A stretch of DNA of 64,000 bases from an uncultured Anaerolineaceae bacterium. GTDB taxonomy: Bacteria > Chloroflexota > Anaerolineae > Anaerolineales > E44-bin32. Shown here piece by piece: positions 36,830 through 58,528 of the stretch (the stretch's first letter is position 1; each line of letters begins with the position of its first letter). The stretch is taken from the NCBI GenBank assembly GCA_964388955.1, contig CAYMCO010000004.1, positions 2,487 through 66,486 of the forward strand. The letters are read 5' to 3'. The notes under the pieces are model-generated. The model was not told the origin of the DNA, did no database searches, and worked only from the letters and a program-made list of their open reading frames with translations. Position numbers and translations under genes: made by a program.

Positions 36830-37108
36830 TGGCCCCACTCCGCTGGAAAAAGAGCTGGAGAAAGAGGGAGCGATGTCTGCTCCAGCCCCAACGAGACACC
36901 ACCCTGTCTATGGAAACAGATGATCGATGTCCTGGAGGCTATCGCCGTGGGATCCGTGACTGCATCCAGCCGTCGCGCAGACGTGCAATGGGCTCGAGCA
37001 TCGTATGGCCTATGGAACGTCCCCTCACATCGCGCCTTCCACTTGCGAAAACCGAATCTGACCCCACGATTGTCCCGGCCCGCAAGGTGGGTGAGCTCAA
37101 TGCGCATC

Positions 37109-38569: not shown

Positions 38570-38760
38570 CGGGCCTCCACGATATGTGGCTATTCCCACT
38601 CTTACCCAGCAGGAGGATGCCCCTACATATACTCTTCGTCAGGGGGGCATAGTGAGGCACCATGTGGCCTATGCCGAGGACGATCAGCGATGGCCGGCCA
38701 TTCTGTCGTGCTATGCCGGTGCATCGCCCCCGGCTTCCAAGCAGTTAATTGCTTTCGCTC

Positions 38761-40551: not shown

Positions 40552-41447
40552 TCGATTCTCGCCAGTGCGCGTGCAACTCCATCGGTGATCATGTTCGTGC
40601 CGATGGTCAACAGAGCGATCGCCAGGATCGGCCCCGCGATAACAGATGGTTGCACACGGAGGCCAGTTCTGTTCTCGTTGATCATCAGACCCCAATCTGC
40701 GGCAGGAGGCTGCAATCCGAAGCCCAGGAAACTCAGCGATGCGATTATGGCGATGGAGAACGTCAATCGGAGGCCCGCTTCGACCATAAGTGGGCCGGTT
40801 ACATTGGGAAGGATCTCCCTGACCAATATCCAGGTCATTTTCTCCCCGCGCGCTTCGGCCGCCTCCACATAGCTCTGGACGGCCACCCCGAGAGTTGCGG
40901 CTCGAATGACTCGAGCGACCTTGGGAATATGGGTCACCGCAACGGCGAGAACCAGCAGCCACAACTGTGGGCCCAGGGTGGTTATGAAGAGAAGGGTAAA
41001 GACAATAGATGGAAGTGAGAGAACTGTATCCATCAGAAACATCAGCAGATCATCCAGCCAGTTCCTGAAGTAACCCGCGGCAAGGCCCACAGTTGTCCCC
41101 CCCAATACGCCCAAGACTGTGGCCAGAGTCGACAGGCCGAGTATTGACCAGCCGCCCCACAGAAATCGAGACAGCGCATCTCTACCCAGGTAATCTGTGC
41201 CGAGCAGAGAGGTGCTGGAAGGTGAGGTATATGGGCTGTTGACGAATTCAGTCGGTGAGTAGGGCGAAAAGAATGGGCCGAAAACCGCGATGATCACCAG
41301 CGTACCGGTGATGGCGATCCCTACCTGAGTTGAGCGGATGGAAAGAGCCCGCCGCAGCACCGTTTCTTCGCTGCTGGAGGGCGAAGAAGAAAGCGTCTCT
41401 CCAGCCGAGTCCCCTTTCCCTGCTTCTGCCCCAGCAATCATCTGCAA
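40548..41447 (-). CDS. ABC transporter permease (DppC/OppC-like)
   Basis: Six TM helices and the EAA-type loop VEAAEARGEKMTWILVREILPN. Confidence 0.85.
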   Translation of the reverse strand: MQMIAGAEAGKGDSAGETLSSSPSSSEETVLRRALSIRSTQVGIAITGTLVIIAVFGPFFSPYSPTEFVNSPYTSPSSTSLLGTDYLGRDALSRFLWGGWSILGLSTLATVLGVLGGTTVGLAAGYFRNWLDDLLMFLMDTVLSLPSIVFTLLFITTLGPQLWLLVLAVAVTHIPKVARVIRAATLGVAVQSYVEAAEARGEKMTWILVREILPNVTGPLMVEAGLRLTFSIAIIASLSFLGFGLQPPAADWGLMINENRTGLRVQPSVIAGPILAIALLTIGTNMITDGVARALARIE

Positions 41448-42392
41448 CTAGGCCCTCAGCTTTGGTGTGAGAAGTATGGCTGAAATATCGGCAAGCAGAT
41501 TCATGAATATGTACACAAGCGCGATAAACAGCGACAGTGCCTGCACCAGCGGGACATCCCGCAGTGCCACTGCGTCGATTAGCGCCTGGCCGACACCGGG
41601 ATAGCGGAATACATATTCAACCACGACGATGCCTCCCGCCATCCATGCGATATTGAGCGCCACAACCTGTATGGTGGGGACAATGGCATTTGGCAGTGCA
41701 TGTCGAAGGTAGACGGTTGGGTCCTGCAGGCCTTTCAACCAGGCCATCTGTATGTATTCACTATCCAGCACTTCCAGCATGGAGGCGCGAAGCATCCGCC
41801 CAATATATGGGGAGGTTGCCAGCACCAGAGTGGCAATTGGAAGCACATAAATCCCTACCCGAGCCCACCCCGTGTCGCCCGGCAGCAGCAGGGATGTCGG
41901 CGGAAACAATCGGAATATGACTGTAGCGAAAACGAAAATCAAGATCATGCCAAGTACAAAGACGGGTAGCGCCACCAGGGTCAGCGTGGCTGTGCTTACG
42001 GCATGATCCAAGAGCCGACCGCGCCAGACTGCGCTGAGGATCCCCAGCGCGATGCCAAGAGGGATTGCGACTATGGATGCGAAAGTGAGCAAGATCAATG
42101 AATTGGAGATGCGCGATCCCAGAACTTCTGCGACAGGCTTGCCGGAAGCCAGTGAAACTCCCAGATCCCCAGATAACAACGATGTGACCCACTTCTGGTA
42201 TTGTACGGGGGGCGGGTCATTCAGGTTGAGCCGGTCACGCAGTATTTCCAATCTCTCCGGCGTGGCGTCGCGGCCCAAAATGGCCTGTGCCGCGTCGCCT
42301 GGCAGGATTTGCGTGGCCGAGAATACCACGATCGATAACAGGATGAGGGTACCAAGTGCCCGGATGATCCTTTTGGCCAGTAGTTCTAACAT
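41448..42392 (-). CDS. ABC transporter permease (DppB/OppB-like)
   Basis: Six TM helices and the loop YIQMAWLKGLQDPTVYLRHALPNA. Its stop abuts the downstream permease start. Confidence 0.85.
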   Translation of the reverse strand: MLELLAKRIIRALGTLILLSIVVFSATQILPGDAAQAILGRDATPERLEILRDRLNLNDPPPVQYQKWVTSLLSGDLGVSLASGKPVAEVLGSRISNSLILLTFASIVAIPLGIALGILSAVWRGRLLDHAVSTATLTLVALPVFVLGMILIFVFATVIFRLFPPTSLLLPGDTGWARVGIYVLPIATLVLATSPYIGRMLRASMLEVLDSEYIQMAWLKGLQDPTVYLRHALPNAIVPTIQVVALNIAWMAGGIVVVEYVFRYPGVGQALIDAVALRDVPLVQALSLFIALVYIFMNLLADISAILLTPKLRA

Positions 42393-42575
42393 CCAGCTCC
42401 ATTAGTGAGTCGGCTTCTCAGCTCGATCAGGCCGACGAAAGGCGTGACATTCGCATGATGTCTGCATACACTAGCGGCATAGGACTCAATATTGTGCCCC
42501 ATCCAGAGTATTCTAATCCGATTGGCCACGGAAGGGCAGCTATCCAGCTGCCCTTCCGTCCGATCCTTCGCGGCA

Positions 42576-44180
42576 CTAGACGAACCGAGCCTCGCGAAAT
42601 CGATAGGATGTCAGGCTGATTCCCGATTTGTCTGGAATGAAACCCTCCAGGTTGGAAGAATAGGCATCGACGTTGTTCTTGAAGCCCCAGATGATGTACC
42701 CGCCGCTCTCATAGAGTATTTTCTGCGCTTCGTGCAAGGGGTCACAGCGCTTGGACCTGTCCACCGTGCTTCGTGCATCTTCGAGCAGGCCATTGAAAGT
42801 GGGGTCATCGAAATGGGTCTCGTTGAACGGAGCACCGGTCACCATGCACTGGAAAGACTGTGGAATGATGTTCCGCGTAAACCAGAAGCTGGTGGAAAAG
42901 GCATATTTCAAGTAGTAGTCGCTCCAGAATTCACTCGAAGGCACCTTTCTGAGGACCACATTCAGGCCGGCGCCCTTTGCCTGTTCGGCAAACACCTCAC
43001 AGGCCTCGACCATACCACCCGAAGCCGGGGAGGTCACCAGGGTCACCTCTGAAACGCCCGCAGATTTCAAGAGTGATTTGGCCTCATTGAGATCTTGCCC
43101 ACGTTGTGGCAGGTCGGAAGCGTAGCAGGGGTCCCAGGGGGAATAGAGGTCATTCCCGATCCATCCCTGGCCGGACAGCGCCTGGTCAATCATCTGTTGC
43201 CGGTCAACGATCAAGCGGCATGCCTGACGGACCCGGACATCATCAAATGGCTCCATATCCACGGCCATGAGGATGGGAACCCAGCCCCCGCCTTTGGATA
43301 CCAGCACCTCGAGAGACGAGTCCTGCTCAGTTGCTGCTATTTCTCCAAAGGGAAGCGAATTGATGGCCTGGACTTGGCCGCCGACAAGCGCGTTGACCCG
43401 TGCGGTATCGTCCTGGAAGCCAATGATGACGACCTCGTCGACATATGGCTGGCCGTCTCTCCAGTAGTTTTCGTGCCGCGGAAATACACTCTGCTGCCCA
43501 GGTGTAAAGCTGCTGTACTTGAACGGGCCCGTGCCAACGGGGGACGATGGATCATATCCCTCGGGCACTATGACGTTGTGGCGCTGAGCCAATTGGTCAT
43601 CGAACACGGCGGAGGGTTCGTCGAGAGCAAACTTGACCGTCCGGTCATCGACTTTGGTAATGCCCTCCGGACTCAGATTGCTCAGGATCTTGGCTCCCGA
43701 CGTTGGGTCGTCCGGATCGATAATCCTTCGGAATGACCAGACCACGTCGTCGGCTGTCAGGATCTTCCCATTGTGGAATTCGATGCCTTCTTTGAGCCGG
43801 ACGACCCATTCATCTGCCGAATCATTGGGTGTCAATTCCTCGGCGAGGACATTCTCGATCTGGTAATCGGTATCGTAAGCGACGAGGCCCTCGTAGAGCT
43901 GCTTGTTCCGGGCGATATCGATCTCGGAAGTGGCTCTGTGAGCATCGAGAGTGTCCTTTTCCGAACCGCCCGAAATGCCTACCAGCAGCCTCCCGCCGCG
44001 GCTGGGTTCGGTTGCTGCTGGCGCCGAGGTCGGCCCTGCCGCCGGTTGACCCCCACAGGCGGCGAGCAACGAGGCTGCGGTGGGCGCCAATCCCAACGCA
44101 CCAGCGATTTTGAAGAACTCCCGACGACTCACCTTCCCCTGTTCGAGGTCTCTTCGAAGATTGCCCACTTGGTCTTTCAT
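42576..44180 (-). CDS. ABC transporter substrate-binding lipoprotein, SBP family 5 (peptide/opine/nickel type), Tat-exported
   Basis: Twin-arginine leader SRREFFK plus lipobox LLAAC. About 500-aa family-5 SBP body. Confidence 0.85.
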   Translation of the reverse strand: MKDQVGNLRRDLEQGKVSRREFFKIAGALGLAPTAASLLAACGGQPAAGPTSAPAATEPSRGGRLLVGISGGSEKDTLDAHRATSEIDIARNKQLYEGLVAYDTDYQIENVLAEELTPNDSADEWVVRLKEGIEFHNGKILTADDVVWSFRRIIDPDDPTSGAKILSNLSPEGITKVDDRTVKFALDEPSAVFDDQLAQRHNVIVPEGYDPSSPVGTGPFKYSSFTPGQQSVFPRHENYWRDGQPYVDEVVIIGFQDDTARVNALVGGQVQAINSLPFGEIAATEQDSSLEVLVSKGGGWVPILMAVDMEPFDDVRVRQACRLIVDRQQMIDQALSGQGWIGNDLYSPWDPCYASDLPQRGQDLNEAKSLLKSAGVSEVTLVTSPASGGMVEACEVFAEQAKGAGLNVVLRKVPSSEFWSDYYLKYAFSTSFWFTRNIIPQSFQCMVTGAPFNETHFDDPTFNGLLEDARSTVDRSKRCDPLHEAQKILYESGGYIIWGFKNNVDAYSSNLEGFIPDKSGISLTSYRFREARFV

Positions 44181-44227: not shown

Positions 44228-44242
44228 CGATAATCGATTATA
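44228..44242. promoter_or_regulatory. candidate operator 1 (CGATAATCGATTATA, core palindrome ATAATCGATTAT)
   Basis: Exact 15-nt copy of the site at 44378-44392. Lies ~50 nt upstream of the SBP start codon (minus strand). Confidence 0.45.
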
Positions 44243-44340
44243 GATTATTCTATACAAACGTCAACGTGGAGTCAAACATAAATTCCCGACAAGTTGCTCT
44301 CAGGAGAAGGTCTTTCGCATCCCAGCGATGCCAAAGTAAC

Positions 44341-44377: not shown

Positions 44378-44392
44378 CGATAATCGATTATA
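44378..44392. promoter_or_regulatory. candidate operator 2 (CGATAATCGATTATA)
   Basis: Second exact copy, located between the -10 element and the AGGAG/ATG of the GntR gene. Confidence 0.45.
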
Positions 44393-44398
44393 GGAGCT

Positions 44399-45124
44399 AT
44401 GATGACGCACCCAATCCCAACGCCGCCATTGCTCAGCGAGCAAGCGTATATGGTGCTACGTGAAGCGATCATTCGTGGCGAAATGAACCCAGGGGAAAGG
44501 ATTGTGGAAACGGTCCTCGCTGGGGAATTGAACATGAGCCAGGCCCCTGTGCGAGAAGCCTTGCGAAGGTTGGAGGAGGAGGGGCTGGTTGAGAACCGGC
44601 CGCGCAGAGGCAGCTTTGTGGCCAAGATCGATGCAAAGGATCTCCAGGAGATCATGGCCGTTAGGGCGGTCCTGGAGGGGCTTGCCGCCAGAGAGGTCGC
44701 TGAACATGGGATCGTTGAATGCATGGATGCCTTACAGGACCTGATGGACGGAATGAGGCAAGATGCAGCAAACAGTGATTTGAAAGCGTTGACTGCCAAA
44801 GACTACGAGTACCACGATGTATTGTGTAGATTGTGCCAGAACCGGACCCTTTACAGGCATTGGTCGATTATCCATGCCAGAATCCGCTTCTACTTGAATT
44901 TCGCGAACATCTCTTATCCCTACCCGGTGGAAATCGCAGAAGGGCATCAGCCGCTCATAGATGCCATGCAGCATCGCAATCCGGATCTGGCGGAGAGGCG
45001 AGCCAGGATTCATGTGCACGAATCCTATTACAAGCAGATCGAACCGATGCTTACTCCCAAAGATGAACGGGATGGGGGGAAGAGGGGAGAGATAATGGAG
45101 GTGGGTGAGAGAAGCCTGAGATAA
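44399..45124 (+). CDS. GntR-family transcriptional regulator (FadR/FCD subfamily)
   Basis: Winged HTH YMVLREAIIRGEMNPGERIVETVLAGELNMSQAPVREALRRLEEEGLV plus a helical FCD-like C-terminal domain. Confidence 0.85.
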   Translation: MMTHPIPTPPLLSEQAYMVLREAIIRGEMNPGERIVETVLAGELNMSQAPVREALRRLEEEGLVENRPRRGSFVAKIDAKDLQEIMAVRAVLEGLAAREVAEHGIVECMDALQDLMDGMRQDAANSDLKALTAKDYEYHDVLCRLCQNRTLYRHWSIIHARIRFYLNFANISYPYPVEIAEGHQPLIDAMQHRNPDLAERRARIHVHESYYKQIEPMLTPKDERDGGKRGEIMEVGERSLR

Positions 45125-45406: not shown

Positions 45407-46183
45407 ATGAATCAGACGAGAAATCCGGTGCTCTATGAAAGGAAAGGCCCCAGCGCTTGGATATGGTTCGACCGTGATGAAAAGCGGAATGCGTGGACAC
45501 CTGAATTAGTCGAGCAGTTTCAGGATTGTCTCGAGGAGGCAGACAACGATCCCGAGGTGAGATGCGTCGTGGTGAGCGGGAAGGGCAAGTGTTTTTGCGC
45601 TGGAATGGATCTGGCCGTAGCCCAAGATCTAGATCTGAGTGGATACCGTGAATACTACCGGAAATATGAGAATCTAAGGGAGACCATCAAGTGGGTTTCG
45701 AAGCCGGTCATTGCTCGCATAAACGGCGATGCCTATGGTGACGGCGTGGCGATTCTGGAATGCTTTGACATCATAGTCGCCGTGGCGGAAGCCCGATTCG
45801 GTTTGCGTGAAATCAACGCGGGATTGGGCGCCGGAGGGCTGCTTTTCTTTGACATCAGCCGGACCAGAGCCCTTGAATTGTGCATTACAGGCCGCACATT
45901 CAGCGGAACCGAAGGAGAGAACTGGGGTCTGATTACAAAGGCAGTCGCCCCGGACCAGCTTGACGAATGCGTGGAGGAATACATAGAGATATTCAGCAAG
46001 CTGCCGCCCGTCGCGGTTTCATATACGAAGAGGGTGGCCAACATGGTCCTCAGCATCGCCGGTCAGGATGCGGCCCGGAAGGTCATGCGGGAACTGCAGA
46101 TCAACACGTTTGACACCAAGGACCGGGAGGAGGCCATGCTCGCTTTCTTGGAAAAGCGAAAGCCGGTCTTCAAGGGGGGATAA
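45407..46183 (+). CDS. enoyl-CoA hydratase/isomerase family protein (crotonase fold, CaiD-like)
   Basis: VVVSGKGKCFCAGMDL oxyanion-hole region and overall crotonase length (258 aa). Confidence 0.85.
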   Translation: MNQTRNPVLYERKGPSAWIWFDRDEKRNAWTPELVEQFQDCLEEADNDPEVRCVVVSGKGKCFCAGMDLAVAQDLDLSGYREYYRKYENLRETIKWVSKPVIARINGDAYGDGVAILECFDIIVAVAEARFGLREINAGLGAGGLLFFDISRTRALELCITGRTFSGTEGENWGLITKAVAPDQLDECVEEYIEIFSKLPPVAVSYTKRVANMVLSIAGQDAARKVMRELQINTFDTKDREEAMLAFLEKRKPVFKGG

Positions 46184-46304
46184 GAAATCAGAATGATGTC
46201 GGAGCCGGCCTTTGCCGTTGGGTCATGAATCACCGCGCTGAACTCGAGAGGTGCTTCTGGATGCAAGATAGACCATTGATCAAGTGGGGGTGCTTTCGCC
46301 AATC

Positions 46305-47507
46305 ATGAATGGTGCTCTTGAGGGCCTACGGGCTGTTGAAGTGGGTGGGGGGATCTCTGGTTCTTTCTGTGCTCTGCTGATCGCCGGGTTTGGTGGGGAG
46401 GTGATCAAGATCGTCCCCCCATCATCCCGAGAGAGAGGTGGGGCGGGGCCCGAGGGTGAAAATCCGTTGGCCGAGGAAAGTTCGACTGGCTTGTTCGCGG
46501 CATTGAACAGGGGAAAGATGAGTGTCTCCCTAGACTTGACGGAGGCGGTCGGTCGTCAAATACTCATCGACCTCGCCGCCCAATGCGATGTACTCATCAT
46601 GAGCCACCCTCCCAACCAAGCGCAACAGCCGGAAGTGCCGCTCAAGAGACTTTCGCAGGCCAACCCGGGCATGATCGTGACATCGGCCTCGAATTTTGGA
46701 CTCGACGGGCCTTATGCTGGCTATCTCGCGGACGAGTTGATCCTCGATGCGCTTGGCGGCTTCGTCTACGGGATTGGCGAGCCGGAAAAGGAGCCGCTAG
46801 GCTGCCAGGGGATTCAATCGCAGGTGTTGGCGGGAGCCTGTGCCTACTTCGGCACGCTGGTGGCACTGATCTCGCGTGATCGAAATGGAGACGGCCAATC
46901 TGTTGACGTTTCGATTCAAGAGACCTTGGCAACATTGCTGGAATCCTCGCTGACCCTGGCTTCTTATAGTGGTTGGATCTGGCGTCGAAGTGGGCGACAT
47001 AGAGCGGTCGCGTACCATCCGATCTCCAACTATCCATGCCGGGATGGGTATCTGAACATCTCCATATTGGAGGACTACGAATGGAGGTCATTCTGCGAGC
47101 TCTTGGGAGCGCCTCAATTGGCAAGTGACCCCAGGTTTTCTACAGCCAAAGATAGGCTTGAGAACGCCGATGAAATCGACGGGTTGATTGGGGCCTGGCT
47201 ACAGGATCGATCGTGTGACGAAATCTATCACGAGGGTCAAGCCCGCAGAATTGCCTGTGGCCCGGTGAATACGGTTAAAGATGTCATCGCTAGTCGCCAG
47301 TTGGAAAGCCGGGAATTCTTCACGGAACTCACAGAAGGCCCCGCCTCCTTGAAGGTCACTCGGCCCCCATTTAAGATGGGCAGGACGAAATGGAACTGCC
47401 TCGACGCGCCGCATGGGCCGGGAGAGGATAATGGGCTGATCTACGAGGGCCTATTGGGCTATGATGCCGATTTCTTGGGGCAGCTGCAAAGAGAAGGGAT
47501 CATCTAA
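46305..47507 (+). CDS. family III CoA-transferase (CaiB/BaiF-type), copy 1
   Basis: N-terminal LEGLRAVEVGGGISGSFCALLIAGFGGEVIKI pattern. ATG 46305 preferred over GTG 46284. Confidence 0.85.
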   Translation: MNGALEGLRAVEVGGGISGSFCALLIAGFGGEVIKIVPPSSRERGGAGPEGENPLAEESSTGLFAALNRGKMSVSLDLTEAVGRQILIDLAAQCDVLIMSHPPNQAQQPEVPLKRLSQANPGMIVTSASNFGLDGPYAGYLADELILDALGGFVYGIGEPEKEPLGCQGIQSQVLAGACAYFGTLVALISRDRNGDGQSVDVSIQETLATLLESSLTLASYSGWIWRRSGRHRAVAYHPISNYPCRDGYLNISILEDYEWRSFCELLGAPQLASDPRFSTAKDRLENADEIDGLIGAWLQDRSCDEIYHEGQARRIACGPVNTVKDVIASRQLESREFFTELTEGPASLKVTRPPFKMGRTKWNCLDAPHGPGEDNGLIYEGLLGYDADFLGQLQREGII

Positions 47508-48803
47508 GTGAGCCGGCCTAGCGGGGACGGGTCCGGATATCCCCTCGGGAATGTCCGCATCTTGGACTGCACTCACTCTTGGGCAGGCCCCTTGGCGACG
47601 CAGATGCTCGCTTTCTTCGGAGCCCAAGTGATCCATATCGAGGCGCCTCACCGGCCGGATCGGTGGCGCGGCCCGGTCGATCCGGCAGCAGACGACCGAT
47701 TCACTTACCGTTATCCGGGCGCTTCACCTGGCGAAAGGCCGTTCGACCGCAACGCGCTCTTCAATGAGAAGAACACGAACAAGCTGGGTTTGACACTCAA
47801 TCTACTTCATCCCAAGGGCCGTGAAATCTTTGGCGCGCTGGTTCGAATAAGCGATGCAGTTGTCACAAACTTCAGTGCCCCGGCAATCCGGAAATTACAT
47901 TTGGACCATGACAGCCTGGCCGAGGTGAACCCCGAGATCGTCACCCTCTCGCTCACTGGAATGGGAGAGACCGGCCCGGAAAGAGATTATGTGGCTTGGG
48001 GAGTGACCATAGAGGCCTTGAGTGGGCTGTCAAGCATGAAAGGGTACAAGGACGGGCCTCCACTGCTCTCAAACATGGCCTATGGGGATCCGGTTGGGGG
48101 GATCTTTGGGGCGGTGGCCCTGATCACGGCAATTTGGGAAAGCCGGAAGACCGGGAGAGGCCAGCACATCGACTTGTCTCTGCTCGAATGCTCAACAACG
48201 CTGCTGCTCGACATGATCGCGGACCACTCCCTTTCGGGTTCAATCCCAAAGAGGAAAGGAAACCGGCACGAGAGCTATGCACCGAGAGGGTGCTATCGGT
48301 GCAGAGGAGAGGATAAGTGGCTCGCGATCGCAGTCACCAGCGACGCTGAATGGCGCGCATTGCAGCTGGCCATGGGGGAACCGCAATGGGCCAAGAGTGA
48401 ACGGTTCTCTACCTCAGTCGGACGAGTCAAATATCAGGATGAGATAGACAAGAACCTCGAAGAGTGGACATGTGACTTCGAACCGGATGAGCTAATGAAG
48501 GCTCTCCAGGATGCCGGCGTACCGGCGGGGTCCGTGCTCAGCAACCGGGAACTGCTGGATAATGAACAACTGAGCTCGAGGAGATTCTTCACTTTGCTTA
48601 GGCACCCTCAGGCTGGAGAGAATCCGTATCCCCGGATGCCAATCCTCTTGTCACGCACTCCAGGAGGATTGCGGAGTCCGGCACCAATGTTCGGTGAGCA
48701 CAATCGTTGGATTGTCTGTGATCTGCTTGGCTATTCCGAACAGGAATATGCCTCACTCGTGGAAGAGCAGGTCATAGGCAGTAGGCCGCTGCAAAAGGAA
48801 TAA
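47508..48803 (+). CDS. family III CoA-transferase (CaiB/BaiF-type), copy 2
   Basis: LGNVRILDCTHSWAGPLATQMLAFFGAQVIHIE pattern. The GTG start directly follows the copy 1 stop. Confidence 0.85.
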   Translation: MSRPSGDGSGYPLGNVRILDCTHSWAGPLATQMLAFFGAQVIHIEAPHRPDRWRGPVDPAADDRFTYRYPGASPGERPFDRNALFNEKNTNKLGLTLNLLHPKGREIFGALVRISDAVVTNFSAPAIRKLHLDHDSLAEVNPEIVTLSLTGMGETGPERDYVAWGVTIEALSGLSSMKGYKDGPPLLSNMAYGDPVGGIFGAVALITAIWESRKTGRGQHIDLSLLECSTTLLLDMIADHSLSGSIPKRKGNRHESYAPRGCYRCRGEDKWLAIAVTSDAEWRALQLAMGEPQWAKSERFSTSVGRVKYQDEIDKNLEEWTCDFEPDELMKALQDAGVPAGSVLSNRELLDNEQLSSRRFFTLLRHPQAGENPYPRMPILLSRTPGGLRSPAPMFGEHNRWIVCDLLGYSEQEYASLVEEQVIGSRPLQKE

Positions 48804-48893: not shown

Positions 48894-49568
48894 ATGGCCA
48901 ACATAGATGAGGAAGGAGTGTCCACGATTGTGCGCGCCTTCCAGGATACAGCATTTGAGGAGATCCCCGCTCTGGTCAGCAAGAGTATTGATTCTGGAGG
49001 AAGCGCGACGAGCATACTCGAAGACGGACTCACCAAAGGCCTGCGGGAAATCGGGGATCGGTTCAGCCGCGGTGAACTATACCTTCCGGAAATGATGATG
49101 GCTGCAGACGCATGGAAGAGGGGAGTGGCAATACTCGATCCATTGCTGGCATCAAGCGGATACCAGCAGAAGCCGATGACGCGAGTAGTAATCGGGACTG
49201 TGAAGGGGGACATTCACTCTCTCGGCAGACAAATAGTGACCACACTACTGAGGACCGCCGGCTGCACGGTGATCGACATTGGCGAAGATGCCCCCGCCTC
49301 GAGATTCGTTCAGGAGGCAGAAGATCAATCCGCGGATATCATCGCGGCCTCCGCACTGATGACCACCACAATGCCACAACAGCGCGAAATAATGGAGCAC
49401 CTCAGGGCGAGAGGCCGGCGTCAGGATTTCTTTGTCATAGTGGGTGGGGGGTGCACTACACAGGAATGGGCTGATGAAATTGGGGCGGACGGGTACGGTG
49501 AAACGGCGGCCGACGCCGTCAGCCTGATGCATGCGTTCGTCAAAGAAGGGAAGGGGGAAGCCCGGTGA
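48894..49568 (+). CDS. corrinoid (cobalamin-binding) protein, MtmC/MttC-like
   Basis: N-terminal helical cap domain plus a B12-binding Rossmann domain with GTVKGDIHSLGRQIV (DxHxxG), SALMTTT and VIVGGG. Confidence 0.85.
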   Translation: MANIDEEGVSTIVRAFQDTAFEEIPALVSKSIDSGGSATSILEDGLTKGLREIGDRFSRGELYLPEMMMAADAWKRGVAILDPLLASSGYQQKPMTRVVIGTVKGDIHSLGRQIVTTLLRTAGCTVIDIGEDAPASRFVQEAEDQSADIIAASALMTTTMPQQREIMEHLRARGRRQDFFVIVGGGCTTQEWADEIGADGYGETAADAVSLMHAFVKEGKGEAR

Positions 49569-50953
49569 TTTCATTTCAGGAGGTCGTCCGAAGGGCGCAT
49601 ACCGGCCCCATCACATCCGAGAGGGAATTTGAGCTTGAACTCTTCATCCCAACATCACGGCGCCTGGCTGAAAGGTTTGGAATAGTCTTTGACCCCGAAA
49701 CGCCTGTGCCTGACGACGACCATCTAGCCGACAGGGTTTGGCAGGCGGGCGTCGAGTTCTTTTCAGAGATTGGGGTCTTTTGCCCGGACACTGAGCGGAG
49801 GATCCTTTTCTCACGTGAGGAAATCGAACGGCTCTTGCATGACCCACCTTCGGAAGTATGGTTCGGGGGTGGAACGGACCGTCGCCCGTTTCCCAGGCGC
49901 ATTCCCGAGAGCGAGACCCGCCCGTGGTGTTCGGTTGGCGCAGCTGGCTGTCCCGTATCCAGCGAAACAATCCTAAAGAATCTAGTCCGTCATTACGCCC
50001 TTAATCCGTATTGCGATTCGGTGACCACGCCTAGCTTGGCGCTCCTGGACGGTTTCCCAATCGTAGCCGGAAGTCCTCTTGAGGTCGAGGGTGCCATCCG
50101 CAGCGTGATGATATCGCGTGAAGGGTTGCGACAAGCGGGGCGCCCCGATCTCGCGATTGTAAATGCTGTGGCGACCGCTACGCATGCGGTGGGCCACATC
50201 GCAGGGGCGGCCCATGGAATACGCACGACGGATGCGTTGGAGATCGGGGCGCACCATGAGATGAGGGTGGATTATGACTCTTTGAACAAGGTTTCATATG
50301 CCATCAGCAAGGGTCATCAAATCTGGGCGGAAAATGGGGTCGTTCTCGGTGGAATTGCAGGCGGCCCAGCCACAACGGCCATTGTCACCGCCGCGTACAA
50401 CCTCTTGGATATGCTTGTGCTGAGAGGCTCGCTCCAACACCCATTCCCGATCCATGTCAATCTGAGGACAACGACATCAAGGGATACTCTCTGGGTTCGC
50501 AGCATTTCCAATCAGGCGATATCGAGAAATAGCTGGCTGCCAATCGCCAACCTGGGATATGTCGGCGCTGGCCCCGCAACTCAAATGGCCTTCTTGGAGA
50601 CTGCTGCATGGGTGATCGCGTCCGTCGCGAGTGGAGGTTCAATAGAAGCGGAGGGGATTGCGAAGAACGCGCACACGGATCATACCGGCCCTCTGGAACC
50701 TTACTTTGCATGCGAGGTCGCGCATGCGGTCTCCGGCTGGGGGAGAAGCCGGGCCAATGAGATAGTGAAATCCCTCCTTGAAAAGTACGAAGCCGGCCTT
50801 GATGACCCGCCCCAAGGGACAAGAATCCAGGAATGTATGGATATCGGGACAGGGGAAATCGAAGATGGTTATCGTCGAACATACCTTGAGGCGCGCGACA
50901 AGATCGCCAAAATGTGTGGGCTGCAATTCAAATGGGCTTCAATCTATGACTGA
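49565..50953 (+). CDS. MtmB-family (monomethylamine methyltransferase) homolog without pyrrolysine codon
   Basis: 462 aa, against 458 aa for MtmB. FFSEIGVFCPDTERRILFSREEIERL, AGRPDLAIVNAV and C-terminal QECMDIGTGEIEDGYRRTYLEARDKIAKMCGLQF parallel M. barkeri MtmB segments as I recall them. GTGA overlap with the corrinoid protein stop. No in-frame TAG. Confidence 0.7.
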   Translation: MISFQEVVRRAHTGPITSEREFELELFIPTSRRLAERFGIVFDPETPVPDDDHLADRVWQAGVEFFSEIGVFCPDTERRILFSREEIERLLHDPPSEVWFGGGTDRRPFPRRIPESETRPWCSVGAAGCPVSSETILKNLVRHYALNPYCDSVTTPSLALLDGFPIVAGSPLEVEGAIRSVMISREGLRQAGRPDLAIVNAVATATHAVGHIAGAAHGIRTTDALEIGAHHEMRVDYDSLNKVSYAISKGHQIWAENGVVLGGIAGGPATTAIVTAAYNLLDMLVLRGSLQHPFPIHVNLRTTTSRDTLWVRSISNQAISRNSWLPIANLGYVGAGPATQMAFLETAAWVIASVASGGSIEAEGIAKNAHTDHTGPLEPYFACEVAHAVSGWGRSRANEIVKSLLEKYEAGLDDPPQGTRIQECMDIGTGEIEDGYRRTYLEARDKIAKMCGLQFKWASIYD

Positions 50954-51105: not shown

Positions 51106-52989
51106 ATGGCATACGGTTATCAGGGCTGCATCCTTCGTGTCGATCTTTCTGCTCGTACGACGAGGGTAGAACGGCCAGATGACGCGTTTTATCGGGAGTA
51201 TATGGGGGGAAGTGCTCTTGGCCTCTGCTACCTTCTGCAAGATTCCTCGGCATGGGTCGACCCATTCGATCCCGCCAACACCTTGGTATTGGCGCTGAGT
51301 GTTCTGACAGGAGCACCCGCCCCGGGGCTGAGCCGGATAACAGCCGTAGCCAAATCCCCCCTCACAGGGGCCATAGGAGATTCGCAGGCAGGGGGTTTCT
51401 TTCCGGCCCATTTGAAGTTCGCGGGATTTGACGCCATCGTCATTGAAGGCAGAGCGGAACGCCCCGTCTACCTATACCTCCACGATGGTCAGGCAGAACT
51501 GTTGCCGGCTGCCCATTTATGGCGGAAACCAACGGATCAGGTGGAAGTGATGATCCAAGAGGAATTGGGGAGCAGGAAGGTCCATGTGCTTCAGTGCGGC
51601 CCCGCCGGGGAGCGATTGGTTCGTTTCGCGGCGTTGATTAACAGGTGTAACCGCGCCAACGGTCGAACCGGCATGGGTGCAGTCTTCGGGAGCAAAAGAC
51701 TGAAGGCGATTGTCGTTTCCGGAAATCGCAAGCCAGGTCTAGCAAATCGGAAAAGACTGCTGGAGTTGGCAAGATGGGGCTCTGACAACTTCGAGTCCTC
51801 CAACATTGTTGGGCTGGGCAAATATGGGACTGCACACATCATGCATTATCAAAACTCAGCCGGTGGCCAGGTAACTCACAATTGGGAAAGCGGTGTCTTC
51901 GATGGCGCAGATTCCCTTGACGGCCGAACAATGGCTGACACGATTCTCAAGGCACGGGACACGTGCTATGCATGTCCCGTCCGCTGCAAGCGAATTGTCA
52001 AAGTGTCCAACGAATCCTGGCAAGTCGATCCGAAATTCGGGGGGCCAGAGTACGAGACGTTATCAGCGTTCGGATCTTACTGCGCAGTGGATGACCTAGC
52101 TGCCGTTTCAGCGGCAAATCAATTGTGCAACCAGTACGGGATGGACACGATATCATGCGGGGCCACGATCTCATGGGCAATGGATTGTTTTGCCCGGGGG
52201 ATACTCGGTGTTAACGACACGGGAGGGCTTGAACTGAAGTTCGGTGATGCAGAAACAATGGTCAAGGTTGTTGAGATGATAGCCAAGCGCGAGGGGTTCG
52301 GGGATTTGCTGGCGGAGGGATCGGCTCGCGCTGCGGCCACGATTGGCCGCGGCTCCGAGCAACTCGTGGTCGCTGTCAAGAATCAGGAAATCCCCGCACA
52401 CATGCCTCATCTCAAACGTAGTTTGGGGCTCATCTACGCGGTTAATCCCTTCGGACCCGACCACCAATCTTCCGAGCACGATCCCTCTTATAAGCACTAT
52501 ACAGACCGCATGGCTGCTATCGGTCTCACGGATCCGCAACCGCTAGATGCCCTGAACTTGGGAAAGGTGCGGTTCGCACTGATCACTCAACATGTCTACT
52601 CCTGTTTGGATTCCCTGAACGTATGCCAGTTTGTGTTTGGTCCCTCTTGGCAGTTGTATGACATTGGTCAGCTTGCGGATGTCGTACAAGCGGTGGCGGG
52701 GTGGGACGTAACAATCGATGAACTCCTTAAGCTGGGGGAGCGGAGGCTGAACATGATGCGAGTTTTCAATTCTCGAGCGGGATTTTCCCGCCGGGAAGAT
52801 AAGTTGCCGTTGAAGCTGCGCATCCCCTTGCAGGGAGGGAAGACAGAAGGCCTTCACATCACTGAGGAGGAGATCAGCGGGGCAAAAGATATGTACTATG
52901 AGTTGGCTGGATGGGATATTGAATCGGGGAATCCTTCCACCAAGACCCTGGAACGTTTGGGGTTGGGGTGGGCCAGTGATGAGAAATAA
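51106..52989 (+). CDS. aldehyde:ferredoxin oxidoreductase family (tungsto-/molybdopterin AOR)
   Basis: N-terminal GCILRVDLS...YMGGSALG and the [4Fe-4S] ligand region CYACPVRCKR. 627 aa. Confidence 0.88.
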   Translation: MAYGYQGCILRVDLSARTTRVERPDDAFYREYMGGSALGLCYLLQDSSAWVDPFDPANTLVLALSVLTGAPAPGLSRITAVAKSPLTGAIGDSQAGGFFPAHLKFAGFDAIVIEGRAERPVYLYLHDGQAELLPAAHLWRKPTDQVEVMIQEELGSRKVHVLQCGPAGERLVRFAALINRCNRANGRTGMGAVFGSKRLKAIVVSGNRKPGLANRKRLLELARWGSDNFESSNIVGLGKYGTAHIMHYQNSAGGQVTHNWESGVFDGADSLDGRTMADTILKARDTCYACPVRCKRIVKVSNESWQVDPKFGGPEYETLSAFGSYCAVDDLAAVSAANQLCNQYGMDTISCGATISWAMDCFARGILGVNDTGGLELKFGDAETMVKVVEMIAKREGFGDLLAEGSARAAATIGRGSEQLVVAVKNQEIPAHMPHLKRSLGLIYAVNPFGPDHQSSEHDPSYKHYTDRMAAIGLTDPQPLDALNLGKVRFALITQHVYSCLDSLNVCQFVFGPSWQLYDIGQLADVVQAVAGWDVTIDELLKLGERRLNMMRVFNSRAGFSRREDKLPLKLRIPLQGGKTEGLHITEEEISGAKDMYYELAGWDIESGNPSTKTLERLGLGWASDEK

Positions 52990-53234: not shown

Positions 53235-55712
53235 ATGATAGGGGCAATAGATCGAGATCGACCTGGAGAACCCTTGCCGACCAGCGCTCGGGTTGTTGTT
53301 ATCGGTGGCGGTATCGTAGGATGCAGCGTGGCGTATCATCTGACAAAGCTCGGCTGGGAAGACGTAATCCTATTGGAACGCAAGCAGCTCACTTGTGGAT
53401 CGACATGGCATGCCGCCGGCTTAGTCACACAACTCCGGGCGACCGAGAACATGACAAAGCTAGCGAAATATACCCAAGAGCTATACTCAAACTTGGAAGA
53501 AGAGACTGGCCAGGCGACAGGTTTTGCCCATGTGGGATCAATCAACCTGGCAACCACCCCTGCGCGCCTTGAGGAGTTGCGCCGAGCTTGTTCGATGGCC
53601 CGCTGTTTCGGTGTGGAGGCTGTTGAGATCTCCCCGAAAGAGATTCACGAGAGGTGGCCGTTGGCCTACGCAGGCGACCTATTAGCAGGATTCTACTTCC
53701 CGAAGGATGCGAAAACAAATCCAATCGACACCACACTCGCGCTTGCGAAGGGAGCGAGGAAACGGGGGGCGGAGATCTTCGAGGGGGTAAAGGTGATTGG
53801 GGTCACCACGGAGAATGGCAGAGCGACCGGAGTGGTGACCTCCAAAGGAAGCGTCGCGGCCGAATACGTTGTTAACTGCGCGGGGATGTGGGGCAGAGAA
53901 CTGGGCAACATGGTTGGTGTTAGAGTTCCACTTCAAGCGGCCGAACACTATTATCTGATAACCGAGCCAATTGAGGGCTTGGACCCTCACCTTCCGATTC
54001 TCAAGGATACGGACAGATGTGCCTATTATCGGGAGGAAACCGGTGGATTGATGATAGGGTTCTTCGAGCCAACTGCGGTGCCATGGGCGTGCAGCGGAAT
54101 CCCCGATGACTGTTCATTCACGGAAATCCCACCGGATTGGGATCGGATGATGCCGTACGTCGAGACAGCGATGGAGCGAGTGCCGGCCGCGGCAACGGTG
54201 GGAATAAGAAAGATGCTCAACGGGCCCGAGAGCTTCACCCCCGATGACCGGTATCTTCTGGGCGAGGCACCGGAGTTGAAGAACTACTTCGTGGCAGCAG
54301 GTTTCAATTCACTAGGGATCCTGTCGGCGGGGGGAGCGGGAAAAGTTCTAGCGGAATGGATCATCGATGGTCAACCTCAAATGGACATCTGGGATGTCGA
54401 TATCAGCAGGACCCTCCCATTCCAGAGCAACCCGCGGTTTCTGAGAAACCGCACAGTGGAAATCCTTGGATTCGCCTACGGAAATCATTGGCCGTACCGG
54501 CAATATAACAGTGCAAGGAATGTCAGAAAGTCAATTCTACATGACCGGCTAGCGGAGGCGGGTGCCTGTTTTGGCGAAGCTGCAGGATGGGAGCGAGCCA
54601 ATTGGTATGCGCCTGGCGGGGTTGAACCGAAGTACCAATACTCTTGGAACAGGCAGAACTGGTTCGAGTACAACAAGGAAGAACACACCGCGGCCAGAAA
54701 TCAGGCCGTGCTTCTGGACCAGAGTTCGTTCTCCAAGTTCCTGGTTCAGGGTCGGGATGCCGGCGAGGTGCTTGACCGCATCTGTGCCAACAGCGTTGCA
54801 GTGCGGGTTGGCAAGTGCGTCTATACCCAGTGGTTGAACAGTCGGGGAACGATCGAAGCGGATCTGACCGTGTCTCGATTGGATGAGGGCCGGTACCTGA
54901 TAATCTGCGCGGGGGCCACCCATACCCATGTTCATACCTGGCTGAGGCGGAACATCCCCGCCGAGGCGCACGCATTCATAACAGATGTCACGTCCGCATA
55001 TGCGATGATAAACATCCAAGGTCCGAATTCGCGCGAGCTCCTGCAACGACTTACCAGTGCGGATCTTTCCTCCGAGGCTTTTCCATATTTGACCTGCCGG
55101 ACTATTGATCTTGCATATGCGCTGGTAGAAGCGTTGCGAATTACATATGTCGGAGAGTTGGGATGGGAACTCTATATACCGACGGAATTTGCCCTGTCGG
55201 TCTATGATGCGCTCGTCGATGAAGGAAGAGATCTTGGGTTGAGGCATGCCGGCTATCACACTCTGAATAGTCTCAGAATAGAAAAGGGGTATCGAGACTT
55301 TGGGCATGATATCGGGGCTGATGATACTCCGTTCGAAGCCGGCTTAGGATTTGCGGTGAAGCTCGAGGGGAAGAGGCGTTTCATCGGCAGGGATGCGTTG
55401 CTGCGCCAGAAGGAGAGAGGGAACCTCACGCGACGGTTGGTTCAATTCCTGCTGGAGGATCCCGAGCCCCTCATGTATCATAACGAGCCCATATTCCAAG
55501 AAGGGCAGCTTGTTGGCTACACCACTTCCGCGATGTACGGGCATACTCTTGGGGGCTCCGTGGCTCTTGGCTACATCAATGATCCGGAGGGTGTCACCAA
55601 GGAAAAGATAAACGCAGGCAATTTCGAGATCGAGGTCGCGGGGAGACGGTACCCGGCGGCAGCCTCGTTGAGACCCATGTTCGACCCGGATAATAGGAAG
55701 ATACTTGCATAA
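53235..55712 (+). CDS. dimethylglycine/sarcosine-dehydrogenase-like flavoenzyme (FAD oxidoreductase + GcvT folate-binding domain)
   Basis: VVIGGGIVGCSVAYHL dinucleotide fold, GSTWHAAGL (covalent-FAD His context), and a C-terminal aminomethyltransferase-like region (YVGELGWELY, GYTTSAMYGHTLG). 825 aa. Confidence 0.85.
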   Translation: MIGAIDRDRPGEPLPTSARVVVIGGGIVGCSVAYHLTKLGWEDVILLERKQLTCGSTWHAAGLVTQLRATENMTKLAKYTQELYSNLEEETGQATGFAHVGSINLATTPARLEELRRACSMARCFGVEAVEISPKEIHERWPLAYAGDLLAGFYFPKDAKTNPIDTTLALAKGARKRGAEIFEGVKVIGVTTENGRATGVVTSKGSVAAEYVVNCAGMWGRELGNMVGVRVPLQAAEHYYLITEPIEGLDPHLPILKDTDRCAYYREETGGLMIGFFEPTAVPWACSGIPDDCSFTEIPPDWDRMMPYVETAMERVPAAATVGIRKMLNGPESFTPDDRYLLGEAPELKNYFVAAGFNSLGILSAGGAGKVLAEWIIDGQPQMDIWDVDISRTLPFQSNPRFLRNRTVEILGFAYGNHWPYRQYNSARNVRKSILHDRLAEAGACFGEAAGWERANWYAPGGVEPKYQYSWNRQNWFEYNKEEHTAARNQAVLLDQSSFSKFLVQGRDAGEVLDRICANSVAVRVGKCVYTQWLNSRGTIEADLTVSRLDEGRYLIICAGATHTHVHTWLRRNIPAEAHAFITDVTSAYAMINIQGPNSRELLQRLTSADLSSEAFPYLTCRTIDLAYALVEALRITYVGELGWELYIPTEFALSVYDALVDEGRDLGLRHAGYHTLNSLRIEKGYRDFGHDIGADDTPFEAGLGFAVKLEGKRRFIGRDALLRQKERGNLTRRLVQFLLEDPEPLMYHNEPIFQEGQLVGYTTSAMYGHTLGGSVALGYINDPEGVTKEKINAGNFEIEVAGRRYPAAASLRPMFDPDNRKILA

Positions 55713-56313: not shown

Positions 56314-56745
56314 CTATGCCACCCCCTTTTCGCTCCGCCGTTTGGATTGCTCCAACCGATAGCTCGGCAGATTGAATTCCAGGATGATGCTGTGATGGAC
56401 CAATCGATCCATGGCCGCAGGCGTGGTCATGGGATCCTTGAATATGCGCTCCCATTTTGAGAAAGGGAGGTTGCTGGTGAGCAGGACACTGCGGCGCTCG
56501 TATCGATCCGCCAGCAGCGTAAACAGCACCTCCAATGGGAGCCAGGACTCTCGCAGCAGCCTGGCGATATGGTTTTGGCGCCGCGCTTCGCGCTCCGTCT
56601 CCACCAGGCCGAAGAGGTACTGCTCGTAGCTGAGCGCCTCCTCTCGCGCCTGGTCAGCCAGATCCCGGTAGCATTCCCGGATGGCGGGAAGGCGCAGCTC
56701 TTTCAGATACTGGGTCAGCTCAACACCCTGCTGCTCTCCGATCAT
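56314..56745 (-). pseudogene. istB: istB remnant with internal deletion of the ATPase core
   Basis: N-terminal LRLPAIRECYRDLADQA and C-terminal RYERRSVLLTSNLPFSKWERIF...DRLVHHS...SYRL are joined directly. No Walker A is present in the 143 aa. Confidence 0.7.
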
Positions 56746-58291
56746 GAGATTTCCATCCCCGCATTCAGCACCGCATCATAGGCCGCCAGGTCCACTTCCG
56801 GGATGCTGATGTCCAGCGGTTTCTCAGGCCTCTGGCCTGAGCTCGCGATCGCATCCACCGCCTCCGCTGTGATGGGCTCCTGCCTCTCGATCAAGAGCCG
56901 CAGGGCATCATCCACGGCAGCTTCGCTCTCGCGTGCCGCCTGGTGCAGGATGCGCAGATATTCTTTGCTGGCCCGTGATGGTGCATGCCGCCGCTTCAGG
57001 GCGTCGTAGGCCATGCGGATGCGGCTGCTGGGAAACAGATCCGCCCGGTAGCGGTAGTTCTCGAAGGCGCCTGGCTTGCGCACCAGCCAGTCGATGATGT
57101 GCCTGTACTGGATGTGGTGCTTGCCTTCTCCACGCAGCCGGGGGATGCTCTCCAGACGGCGCTGGGCATACCACACTTCCAGATGCTCAGCATAGAGGCG
57201 CACGTTGACCTGCTCGCCGATCAGTCGGCTGTCCACCGAATAGACATCCTTCGCCACCCGGATCGTGCTGCCAGGGCGCACCCTCACCCGCAGTCGCTTG
57301 CAGGCTTCCAGACGGCCTTGGGGGAGCCACTTCAGGAGCTTCAGCTCCTCCGGCAGCCGCTCCCGCCGCCCGGCATTGAGCTGCTTGAGCAGTTTGCGCA
57401 CAAAAGCCTCGTACTCCTCCCGGCTGTTGAAGTCCCGACTGCCGCGCAGCATCAGCGACTGATCCAGCGCATTTTTGCCTGCCCTGGCGGGCTAGGCCAG
57501 GGAAGCCGTGGTGCCTTTGCTCCACGTCCCCGTTTTCGTTCGGCTGCGCAGCCTGGATTTTGCGCCCGCGCAGCCCATTGTGCCTCAGCAGCGCACCGTA
57601 GCGGCGGGTGAACTCCCCCGGATTGCCGGTCTTATGCACCACCGTCGACAGCCCGTCGGCGCGCTGGGCCGCCGGCACGCCACCCAGCTCCCAGAGCGCG
57701 TTCTGCCGCAGGTGCCCGGCACGGGTCAAGCCCTTCGCTCAGGCTCTCAAAGCTCTCGCAGAAGCAGATCGCCCCCGTCTCCCAATTTGAGTAGGGCAGC
57801 ACGAAATGGTAGATCAGGTGCTCGAAGGGGATGCGCTGGCTCGTCACCCCCAGATCGCCCATGTAGCCGAAAGCGGACTCACACATTTCTCCCGGGCGGT
57901 ATTCCTGAGGAAAGAATACTTCCTCCGGCTGCCCTTCCAGTGCACGCCAGGTCTTCACCCACCGCTGCAGTGTTCTCAACTGCCCATCCGCAAACCGGCC
58001 GGGATAGCGGCGCCGCCTATCCTCCCTGGTCAGGATCTTCGACAACAAGGTCTTCGCCTCAAGCCCAGAGTTGACCTCTAGTTTTCCTCTCACCTCATCC
58101 CAGACTTCTGCAAAGGGATCCGGGCGCGTGCGCCAGGTGTGTTCCGCCCTCACTTCGCTGGGCAGCCGTCCCAGATCACGGTACTTGCGGGCTGTCTTCT
58201 CATCCATACCAGCTTTCGCTGCCGCATTGGCCAGCGTTCTTTGCCTCTTCATCAGCTTCCAAAGCCTCCTCGCCTGTTGATCGGTGACCAT
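56742..58291 (-). pseudogene. istA: istA transposase, frameshifted (three frames)
   Basis: IstA homology is split over ORFs 57632-58330, 57187-57729 and 56742-57452. ATG 58291 is preceded by AAGGAGG. The stop overlaps the istB start (ATGA). Confidence 0.7.
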
Positions 58292-58528
58292 CCAACCTCC
58301 TTCTTGACAAGAAGCTGGATTGTCACACATCCCCGATTTTCCGGGAATTCTAATTGTCGCTGATCACACCATCCAGCAGTGAGGCAAATTGAGTGCTTGC
58401 CGCTGCAAGCGCAGTTCCTTGGCTCAGAAGCAAGAAGCGTCCAAGAAGTGAAGGGCACTGGTCAACGACAGGAGTCCTCAAGCAGCACATGGATGTCACT
58501 AGTGCCGGTTAAGGCATTATTGGCCGGT

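Follow-up and report, generated by a model that had tools for sequence, protein, structure and literature searches.

Relatives of the three methanogen methylamine methyltransferases that lack pyrrolysine (Pyl) are emerging as the demethylases with which anaerobes handle osmolytes and diet-derived amines. Within the non-Pyl MttB superfamily, MtgB acts on glycine betaine, MtpB on proline betaine, MtcB on carnitine and MtyB on gamma-butyrobetaine. To our knowledge the MttB side of these relatives is well explored, whereas the side of MtmB, the monomethylamine methyltransferase, has exactly one characterised non-Pyl member. Here we describe a Pyl-free MtmB relative and its adjoining corrinoid protein, encoded in a 64,000-nucleotide (64-kb) stretch of contig CAYMCO010000004.1 from an uncultured Anaerolineaceae bacterium of the Chloroflexota. 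This whole stretch is referred to below as the window, and coordinates are positions within it. The pair had been pointed out in an earlier note made from the sequence.

The characterised member on the MtmB side is MtqB, an MtmB homolog without Pyl from Methanococcoides methylutens Q3c, by which tetramethylammonium and choline are demethylated (Kashyap et al., Front Microbiol, March 2026; PMC13044021). Proteomics and enzyme assay were used to establish that MtqB methylates cob(I)alamin from both substrates, with trace monomethylamine activity, and the genes for MtqC (216 aa) and MtqB (459 aa) are adjacent in C-then-B order (PMC13044021). MtqB, locus tag ACT9XH_RS04775 on NZ_CP199767.1, was reported to branch near the Pyl-containing MtmB proteins, in a clade made up of Methanococcoides/Methanosarcina sequences and a bacterial branch, and docking placed conserved Met, Cys and aromatic residues around the ligand (PMC13044021). 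In 'Ca. Formimonas warabiya' DCMF, the protein most induced by dichloromethane is a non-Pyl member of the MtmB superfamily, Ga0180325_111810 (Holland et al. 2022; PMC9768040). The characterised non-Pyl MttB enzymes all act on quaternary amines (PMC13044021, PMC9768040). The earlier note had held that no non-Pyl MtmB homolog has an assigned substrate, a statement overtaken by the assignment of tetramethylammonium and choline to MtqB in March 2026 (PMC13044021). For the Chloroflexota clade to which the window protein itself belongs, our literature search found no published function, and on that point it turned up nothing that contradicts the note.

A pyrrolysine-free MtmB relative and its corrinoid partner

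The open reading frame (ORF) at 49565-50953 on the plus strand begins with GTG, ends with TGA and encodes 462 aa. The product matches PF05369 with E=3.5e-78 and 263.9 bits (cutoff 25), and the match is full length, residues 6-450 lying on profile positions 5-448 of 450. With phmmer the M. barkeri MtmB chains 1L2Q/1NTH are recovered at E=1.2e-48, at an overall identity of 27.9%; none of the NCBIfam models claims the protein. An AlphaFold2 model built on 28 relatives (predicted local distance difference test score 92.9, predicted template-modelling score 0.93) was aligned to 1L2Q by Foldseek with E=2.4e-41, template-modelling (TM) scores of 0.94/0.95 and a root-mean-square deviation of 1.7 Å over 454 columns, while MttB-family structures reached TM scores of only about 0.5 against the same model, at 10-12% identity. 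Profile and structure thus bear out the MtmB-family membership that the earlier note had proposed, and the three segments it had given as parallels to MtmB are all reproduced in the HMMER alignment.

The ORF contains no in-frame TAG. In the HMMER alignment Val199 (AGRPDLAI-V-NAV) occupies the column of MtmB Pyl202, an ordinary residue at that position as the note had read it. Asn200, which follows, is a one-residue insertion, and the G-P-E-T segment that follows Pyl in MtmB is lost. A hidden Pyl codon or a sequencing artefact was considered and ruled out, the frame being open, the codons at the site reading GTC-AAC and Val/Ile-Asn recurring in 100+ relatives. No pyl genes occur among the annotated ORFs of the window and no tRNA-Pyl was found in it, tRNA-Asn being its sole tRNA. 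The 462-aa protein is a real, intact bacterial Pyl-free relative of MtmB.

Scaffold residues common to MtmB and the window protein include the AGRP motif, Asp223, Glu226, Glu232, Glu256 and Tyr332, among others. Glu226 and Glu256 of the window clade are the counterparts of MtmB Glu229 and Glu259, whereas most other non-Pyl clades have Leu, Met or Ile there. The residues specific to the clade (H211, E226, H231, N257, N279, D282, H292 and R312, plus W349) are mostly polar, and several of the His, Asn, Asp and Arg residues among them fall in predicted beta-strands of the barrel. Pocket residues were picked by alignment-derived conservation, the literature on names of MtmB active-site residues having given nothing usable. 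Alignment and strand positions together suggest a polar pocket that would suit a protonated amine with a carboxylate.

Immediately upstream lies the gene for a cognate corrinoid (B12-binding) protein (48894-49568, plus strand), of 224 aa if read from ATG at 48894 or 226 aa from GTG at 48888. Its product carries PF02607 and PF02310 and the cobalt-ligand motif D-I-H-S-L-G, a DxHxxG motif. The stop codon TGA (49566-49568) shares bases with the GTG start of the methyltransferase gene (49565-49567) in a GTGA overlap, directly upstream of which stands the purine-rich GGGAAGGGGGAAG; both ORFs and the overlap are where the earlier note had placed them. An identical 4-nt overlap is present in the gene calls of the closest relatives, and the two genes are apparently translationally coupled. 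TIGR02370 (methyltransferase cognate corrinoid protein) gives 199.9 bits, its cutoff being 215.3; the MtgC and MtbC models score nearly the same, and all three stay below their own cutoffs. In the relative L086 the orthologous partner exceeds the TIGR02370 cutoff with 220.2 bits. By these profile scores the corrinoid protein is of the generic methyltransferase-cognate type, so that the description 'MtmC-like' given to it in the note stands as to its being a cognate corrinoid protein and not as to any specific likeness to MtmC.

An exhaustive HMMER search of 1.84 billion cluster representatives, with clusters formed at 50% identity, returned 905 clusters of the MtmB superfamily at E<=1e-3, of which 182 also passed E<=1e-30. 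Outside the cluster of the window protein, the best-matching representative is 43% identical to that protein. Because the residues at the Pyl column differ between the aligned representatives, the superfamily divides into well over a hundred deep subfamilies. The window protein represents an uncharacterised branch of a large, known superfamily and not the new type of substrate:corrinoid methyltransferase that the note had taken it for.

At 90% identity the clade of the window protein breaks down into at least 120 clusters, almost all with lengths of 461-463 aa and 48-67% identity to the window protein, and the named members of the clade all come from Chloroflexota metagenome-assembled genomes (MAGs; Dehalococcoidia and Anaerolineales). 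Across 28 aligned members, again nearly all of 461-463 aa, mean column identity is 71% with 69 invariant columns; their motif reads AGRPGMP-I-V-N, and Asn200 is invariant. These aligned members are all intact and without TAG. A locus scan that used one genome per species yielded 79 loci from several phyla, with identities to the window protein of 49-66% in Chloroflexota, 38-46% in Thermoleophilia, Bathyarchaeia, Methanomethylicia and Asgard archaea, and 31-41% in Planctomycetota, Desulfobacterota, Spirochaetota and Formimonas. The motif at the Pyl column differs from one of these taxon groups to the next. A distance tree places the window protein among Anaerolineales-type sequences, which together are sister to the Dehalococcoidia group.

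A Pyl-type mtmB was also seen in a Chloroflexota MAG, Dehalococcoidales bacterium BLK2-2.bin.81 (L084, JAWOBD010000048.1, positions 2018-2044 of the locus). Here an in-frame TAG stands right after AGRPGMGF and is followed by GPETPLTSEG, conservation runs to the C-terminus, and over the N-terminal part the identity to M. barkeri MtmB reaches 47.6%; this suggests Pyl decoding in a Dehalococcoidales lineage.

The gene cluster in the window and in other loci

The pair lies in a plus-strand unit with short gaps, ordered gntR, hydratase, two CoA-transferase genes, corrinoid, MtmB-like, aldehyde:ferredoxin oxidoreductase (AOR) and DMGDH-like. The first gene (44399-45124) encodes a GntR/FCD-family regulator with PF00392 and PF07729, and GntR/FCD genes recur beside the closest relatives. 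It is followed by an enoyl-CoA hydratase/isomerase family protein (45407-46183; PF00378, E=1.4e-43) and two family III (CaiB-like) CoA-transferases (46284-47507, PF02515, E=1.2e-77; 47508-48803, PF02515, E=4.9e-98). Close homologs of the second CoA-transferase adjoin urease genes, a context that is uninformative. Downstream of the pair are the AOR gene, of the tungsto/molybdopterin family (51106-52989; PF02730 and PF01314), and a gene for a DMGDH/sarcosine-dehydrogenase-like flavoprotein with a folate-binding GcvT domain (53235-55712, start possibly 53328; PF01266, PF16350, PF01571 and PF08669), whose product is 42% identical to that of the DMGDH-like gene beside the relative P0010.

Divergent from this unit, on the minus strand, are an ATP-binding cassette (ABC) transporter of the Opp/Dpp type, a gene of the non-Pyl MttB superfamily and a short-chain dehydrogenase (SDR) gene. 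The transporter (38761-44180; PF00496, PF00528 twice, and PF00005 twice with PF08352) consists of a family-5 binding protein (42576-44180), two permeases and a fused double ATPase. The MttB-like protein (37109-38599; PF06253, E=7.9e-77), putatively a second substrate:corrinoid methyltransferase (MT1), scores 308.6 bits with TIGR02369, below the cutoff of 525, and has PDB matches to 7XCL and to MtgB 2QNE/9YCE. The SDR (36053-36838; PF00106) resembles 3-hydroxybutyrate dehydrogenase, with 216 bits for NF009093, below the cutoff of 258.

Within the 218-nt intergenic region between the transporter and gntR, the exact 16-nt repeat CGATAATCGATTATAG occurs in two copies, with the perfect 12-nt palindrome ATAATCGATTAT. 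Copy 1 (44228-44243) overlaps the -10 of the best minus-strand promoter-like site; copy 2 (44378-44393) lies 9 nt downstream of the best plus-strand promoter-like -10 and ends 6 nt before the gntR start. The only two exact matches to the palindrome in the window are those within these copies, and if up to 2 mismatches are allowed, 4 matches are found where 0.85 would be expected. The layout is as expected if one GntR-type repressor acted on both divergent operons, with the repeats as candidate operators. No riboswitch or other RNA element was found near the operon.

Further to the left, a tRNA-Asn gene (32724-32798, plus strand) abuts a tyrosine integrase gene (32850-34019, minus strand), likely the left end of an island. 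The GC content falls from about 0.63 to about 0.56 rightward of this site, and the region on its left is of housekeeping type. The region on the right is probably a horizontally acquired island carrying the cluster; a right-hand att site, looked for as a repeat of the tRNA-Asn 3' end, was not found within the window. Remnants of the IS21 family, an IstB-like ORF (PF01695) and IstA-like ORFs, follow right after the DMGDH-like gene (56314-58330, minus strand), as would fit a region that is mosaic and mobile. Elsewhere in the window, 8413-10299 (minus strand) encodes a Na+/H+ exchanger (PF00999) fused to a C-terminal cyclic-di-AMP receptor domain (PF06153), and two minus-strand ORFs of the housekeeping part, of 879 aa (17185-19824) and 420 aa (20667-21929), have no Pfam match at E<=1e-5.

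The window neighbours were compared by BLAST with 84 other loci. A corrinoid homolog adjoins the MtmB-like gene in 74 of the 84, the prevailing order across loci being corrinoid then MtmB-like, and Opp-type ATPases were found in 24, MttB-like genes in 12 and AOR in 3. Enoyl-CoA hydratase, CoA-transferase and DMGDH-like genes were each found in none of the 84, and a DMGDH-like gene is present in one relative added later, L086. The earlier note had described the pair as embedded in a catabolic cluster; this holds for the operon-like arrangement with MttB-like and DMGDH-like genes in the window, but the hydratase, CoA-transferase and DMGDH-like parts have no counterparts in the 84 loci, and the window neighbours were rejected as a family-wide signal.

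Unbiased clustering of the flanking ORFs revealed class-III aminotransferases beside the pair in 17 loci, class-I/II aminotransferases in 7, LarA-like genes in 7, and a CoA-acylating methylmalonate-semialdehyde dehydrogenase next to an aminotransferase in 3; some of the aminotransferases are joined by this dehydrogenase or by AOR. Corrinoid activases of the RACo type adjoin the pair in three loci (L082, L083 and L085), and Opp-like transporters flank it in Thermoleophilia and Asgard loci. Tandem MtmB-like paralogs are frequent, with up to four copies. Arrays of 2-4 such paralogs, some each with its own corrinoid gene, were observed in L017, L019, L039, L082 and others, the order in L082 being C-B-B-C-B-C-B; in those of Dehalococcoidia, two or three class-III aminotransferase paralogs and a regulator of the Lrp type lie in among the MtmB-like genes. 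Such arrays point to a diversification of substrates as in the non-Pyl MttB family. In the Methanomethylicia/Desulfurococcaceae MAGs of L029, L037 and L063 the pair stands beside a class-III aminotransferase and a TIGR01722 dehydrogenase (above cutoff). An aminotransferase together with a CoA-acylating methylmalonate-semialdehyde dehydrogenase is the classic catabolic pair for beta-alanine and 3-aminoisobutyrate, hinting at N-methylated beta-amino acids as substrates in these archaea.

Of the relatives found on long contigs, the three closest (66-67% identity) have one cluster in common. In it the C-B pair, with an SDR after it, is accompanied by two GntR genes, an ABC transporter of the amino-acid type, an M20/M28 peptidase, glycine-cleavage P subunits, a non-Pyl MttB and a cysteine-desulfurase-like protein; a DMGDH-like gene is also present in one of the three. 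A route from glycine betaine through glycine and serine to glycerate was considered for these relatives and was weakened on two counts, the supposed class-V aminotransferase being cysteine-desulfurase-like (TIGR01976) and their MttB being a generic non-Pyl MttB. Between the window and this cluster the members of the pair are 66% and 54% identical, the DMGDH-like proteins 42%, the SDR 35%, GntR 30% and the MttB-like proteins 26%. Much better conserved than its partners, the pair is thus a portable module that has come together with different accessory genes.

Proposed role and rival explanations

Judged by its family and its fold, by a conserved corrinoid partner whose gene overlaps its own, by RACo genes next to homologs and by the precedent of MtqB, the window protein very probably has the generic role of an MT1. 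Our best explanation, put forward tentatively and at slightly less than an even chance, is that it is the Pyl-independent MT1 of a three-component corrinoid N-demethylation system on the tRNA-Asn-linked island. The MtmB-like enzyme would take up an N-methylated substrate at the C-terminal mouth of its TIM (triosephosphate isomerase) barrel and hand the methyl group on to the product of the adjoining upstream gene, the corrinoid protein in its Co(I) form. An MT2 methyltransferase, presumably acting on tetrahydrofolate, would unload the corrinoid, and an ATP-dependent reductive activase would complete the cycle, both being encoded outside the window. At the level of the pathway, the Opp-type importer may bring in a trimethylammonium compound with a carboxylate-bearing skeleton, and the three demethylases (MttB-like, MtmB-like and the folate-dependent DMGDH-like enzyme) would correspond to its three methyl groups. 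The MttB-like enzyme would start on the quaternary compound and remove its first methyl, and a later methyl would be removed by the MtmB-like enzyme from a tertiary or secondary amine intermediate. Processing of the skeleton would then fall to the hydratase, the two CoA-transferases, the aldehyde oxidoreductase and the SDR.

With the MttB-like and DMGDH-like genes in the cluster, action on one N-methyl step of a pathway, as the note had proposed, stays the most plausible reading. We infer that this step is a later one, an assignment that is itself provisional and has not quite half the weight of probability behind it. Since the non-Pyl MttB enzymes that have been characterised remove the first methyl from a quaternary amine, a later step would be left for the MtmB-like enzyme, and MttB-like and DMGDH-like genes co-occur with the pair both here and beside P0010 (66% identical). 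The aminotransferases beside the pair, often with aldehyde-oxidising enzymes, imply a primary-amine product that would become an aldehyde and then an acid, and in Dehalococcoidia loci MtmB-like and aminotransferase paralogs multiply together. The retention of Glu226/Glu256 and of the polar clade-specific residues also fits a later step. A bolder form of this reading, possible rather than probable, is that the Chloroflexota clade demethylates a non-quaternary methylamine such as sarcosine, dimethylglycine or an N-methyl beta- or gamma-amino acid, with Glu226/Glu256 and the polar pocket replacing pyrrolysine.

Several points weigh against the later-step reading. The only characterised non-Pyl MtmB and all characterised non-Pyl MttB enzymes use quaternary amines, and the prior favours a quaternary substrate (PMC13044021, PMC9768040). 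MT1 activity in this clade is deduced from sequence, model and analogy, and the pocket from alignment and strand positions. No MT2 (pterin-binding or URO-D type), RamA/RACo activase or aminotransferase was found in the 64-kb window. The context of hydratase, CoA-transferase and DMGDH-like genes is missing in the 84 loci, which leaves guilt by association thin, and with IS21 fragments adjoining, the local context could reflect island mosaicism. The better conservation of the pair (66% and 54%) than of its partners (26-42%) may indicate a common small substrate unrelated to the skeleton genes. Finally, with the 'class-V aminotransferase' beside relatives found to be cysteine-desulfurase-like, one apparent link to glycine and serine is removed.

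Among the alternatives, the one that survives best, although we consider it rather unlikely, is that the window protein is an MtqB-like quaternary-amine:corrinoid methyltransferase, which would take the first methyl from choline, tetramethylammonium, a betaine, or a carnitine- or butyrobetaine-type compound in parallel to the MttB-like enzyme. This is the reaction of MtqB, the sole characterised non-Pyl MtmB (PMC13044021), whose mtqC-mtqB gene order is the same as that of the pair, and quaternary amines, the substrates of every characterised non-Pyl MttB, need no Pyl-type activation (PMC9768040). The CaiB-like CoA-transferases and the crotonase likewise recall carnitine/crotonobetaine metabolism. 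Against this, the window clade is remote from the surroundings of the Pyl-containing MtmB proteins, to which the paper assigns MtqB: its identity to M. barkeri MtmB is about 28%, and to the representatives that come closest to MtmB (39-41% to MtmB) it is only 28-30%. Down to 48% identity, the homologs of the window protein include no named protein from Methanococcoides or Methanosarcina, nor was a named Methanococcoides protein found among homologs of a Thermodesulfobacteriota protein with the motif 'GMGIINHMSSC'. We infer that the window clade lies outside the MtqB clade, as judged by the described position of MtqB rather than its sequence. The polar and acidic residues of the pocket region are also unlike the Met/Cys/aromatic set described for MtqB, and aminotransferases adjacent to the pair across the family are hard to square with a single demethylation of a trimethylammonium group.

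A non-amine donor of methyl or methylene (for example a halomethane, a methylated thiol or a methoxylated compound), with the nitrogen-metabolism neighbours as coincidental cargo of the island, is improbable. The dichloromethane-induced Formimonas protein (PMC9768040) shows that a non-Pyl member of the superfamily can be linked to such a compound, the more than 100 deeply divergent subfamilies each have their own Pyl-column residues, and the context in the window is not conserved. However, the Formimonas-type clade is only 36% identical and has another Pyl-column motif, FLV-AVGT, the window gene sits between amine-related genes under one apparent regulator, and its relatives repeatedly adjoin aminotransferases and MttB-like and DMGDH-like genes. 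A genuine Pyl-independent monomethylamine methyltransferase, or a decayed, inactive relic of one, is very improbable: automatic annotation names relatives 'monomethylamine:corrinoid methyltransferase', MtqB has trace activity on monomethylamine (PMC13044021) and Glu226 and Glu256 match Glu229 and Glu259 of MtmB, but those names stem from Pfam and none of the NCBIfam models lays claim to the protein, Val replaces Pyl with a one-residue insertion and loss of G-P-E-T, the Pyl-type mtmB of the Dehalococcoidales MAG retains TAG-GPET in clear contrast within one phylum, and the strong conservation of length and sequence across many genomes, together with a corrinoid partner, speaks against a relic.

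Comparison with known systems

The pair is intact and well conserved and represents a Chloroflexota branch that is large and uncharacterised, and Chloroflexota of this kind are abundant in sediments and the subsurface. The compact cluster, apparently under a single regulator, narrows the search for a substrate to the intermediates of one trimethylammonium-compound pathway, which makes the pair a good candidate for a second assignment of function in the superfamily. Were the substrate non-quaternary, this would be the first Pyl-independent corrinoid demethylation of a simple methylamine; it would explain the frequent aminotransferase neighbours and revise the present view, by which corrinoid-dependent demethylation of an amine requires either pyrrolysine or a permanent positive charge. 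Were it quaternary, the protein would be one more entry on a growing but ordinary list.

Compared with M. barkeri MtmB (1L2Q/1NTH), the window protein shares the Pfam family, the TIM-barrel fold, the AGRP motif and a cognate DxHxxG corrinoid protein. It differs in having Val199 and an insertion in place of UAG/Pyl and G-P-E-T, in its identity of about 28% and in its non-methanogen host, and monomethylamine activity would not be expected of it. The non-Pyl MttB superfamily, of which one gene is present here (37109-38599), is a separate protein family (PF06253 as against PF05369). Its logic is shared in that Pyl-free members of a Pyl family became demethylases for other methylated amines, and the systems are bacterial, corrinoid-dependent and linked to tetrahydrofolate. 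With the Formimonas protein the window protein has in common that it is bacterial, a Pyl-free member of the MtmB superfamily and encoded beside a corrinoid protein. The Formimonas homolog in our scan (L065, which may or may not be the published gene) is 36% identical and has the Pyl-column motif FFV-AVGT, and the published protein is linked to a halomethane and not to an amine.

The closest functional precedent is MtqB/MtqC. Both systems pair a Pyl-free MT1 of the MtmB superfamily, of about 460 aa, with its own corrinoid gene of about 216-226 aa located directly upstream, and both need a separate MT2 and a RamA-type activase that are encoded elsewhere. MtqB is archaeal and feeds coenzyme M and methanogenesis, whereas the window protein is bacterial and Chloroflexota-like and presumably feeds tetrahydrofolate. 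The pocket of MtqB is reported to be built of Met, Cys and aromatic residues, whereas the window protein has Val-Asn at the Pyl site and acidic and polar clade-specific residues; the MtqB residues are given as logo positions and those of the window clade as numbered positions, so that the two sets compare in character rather than one to one.

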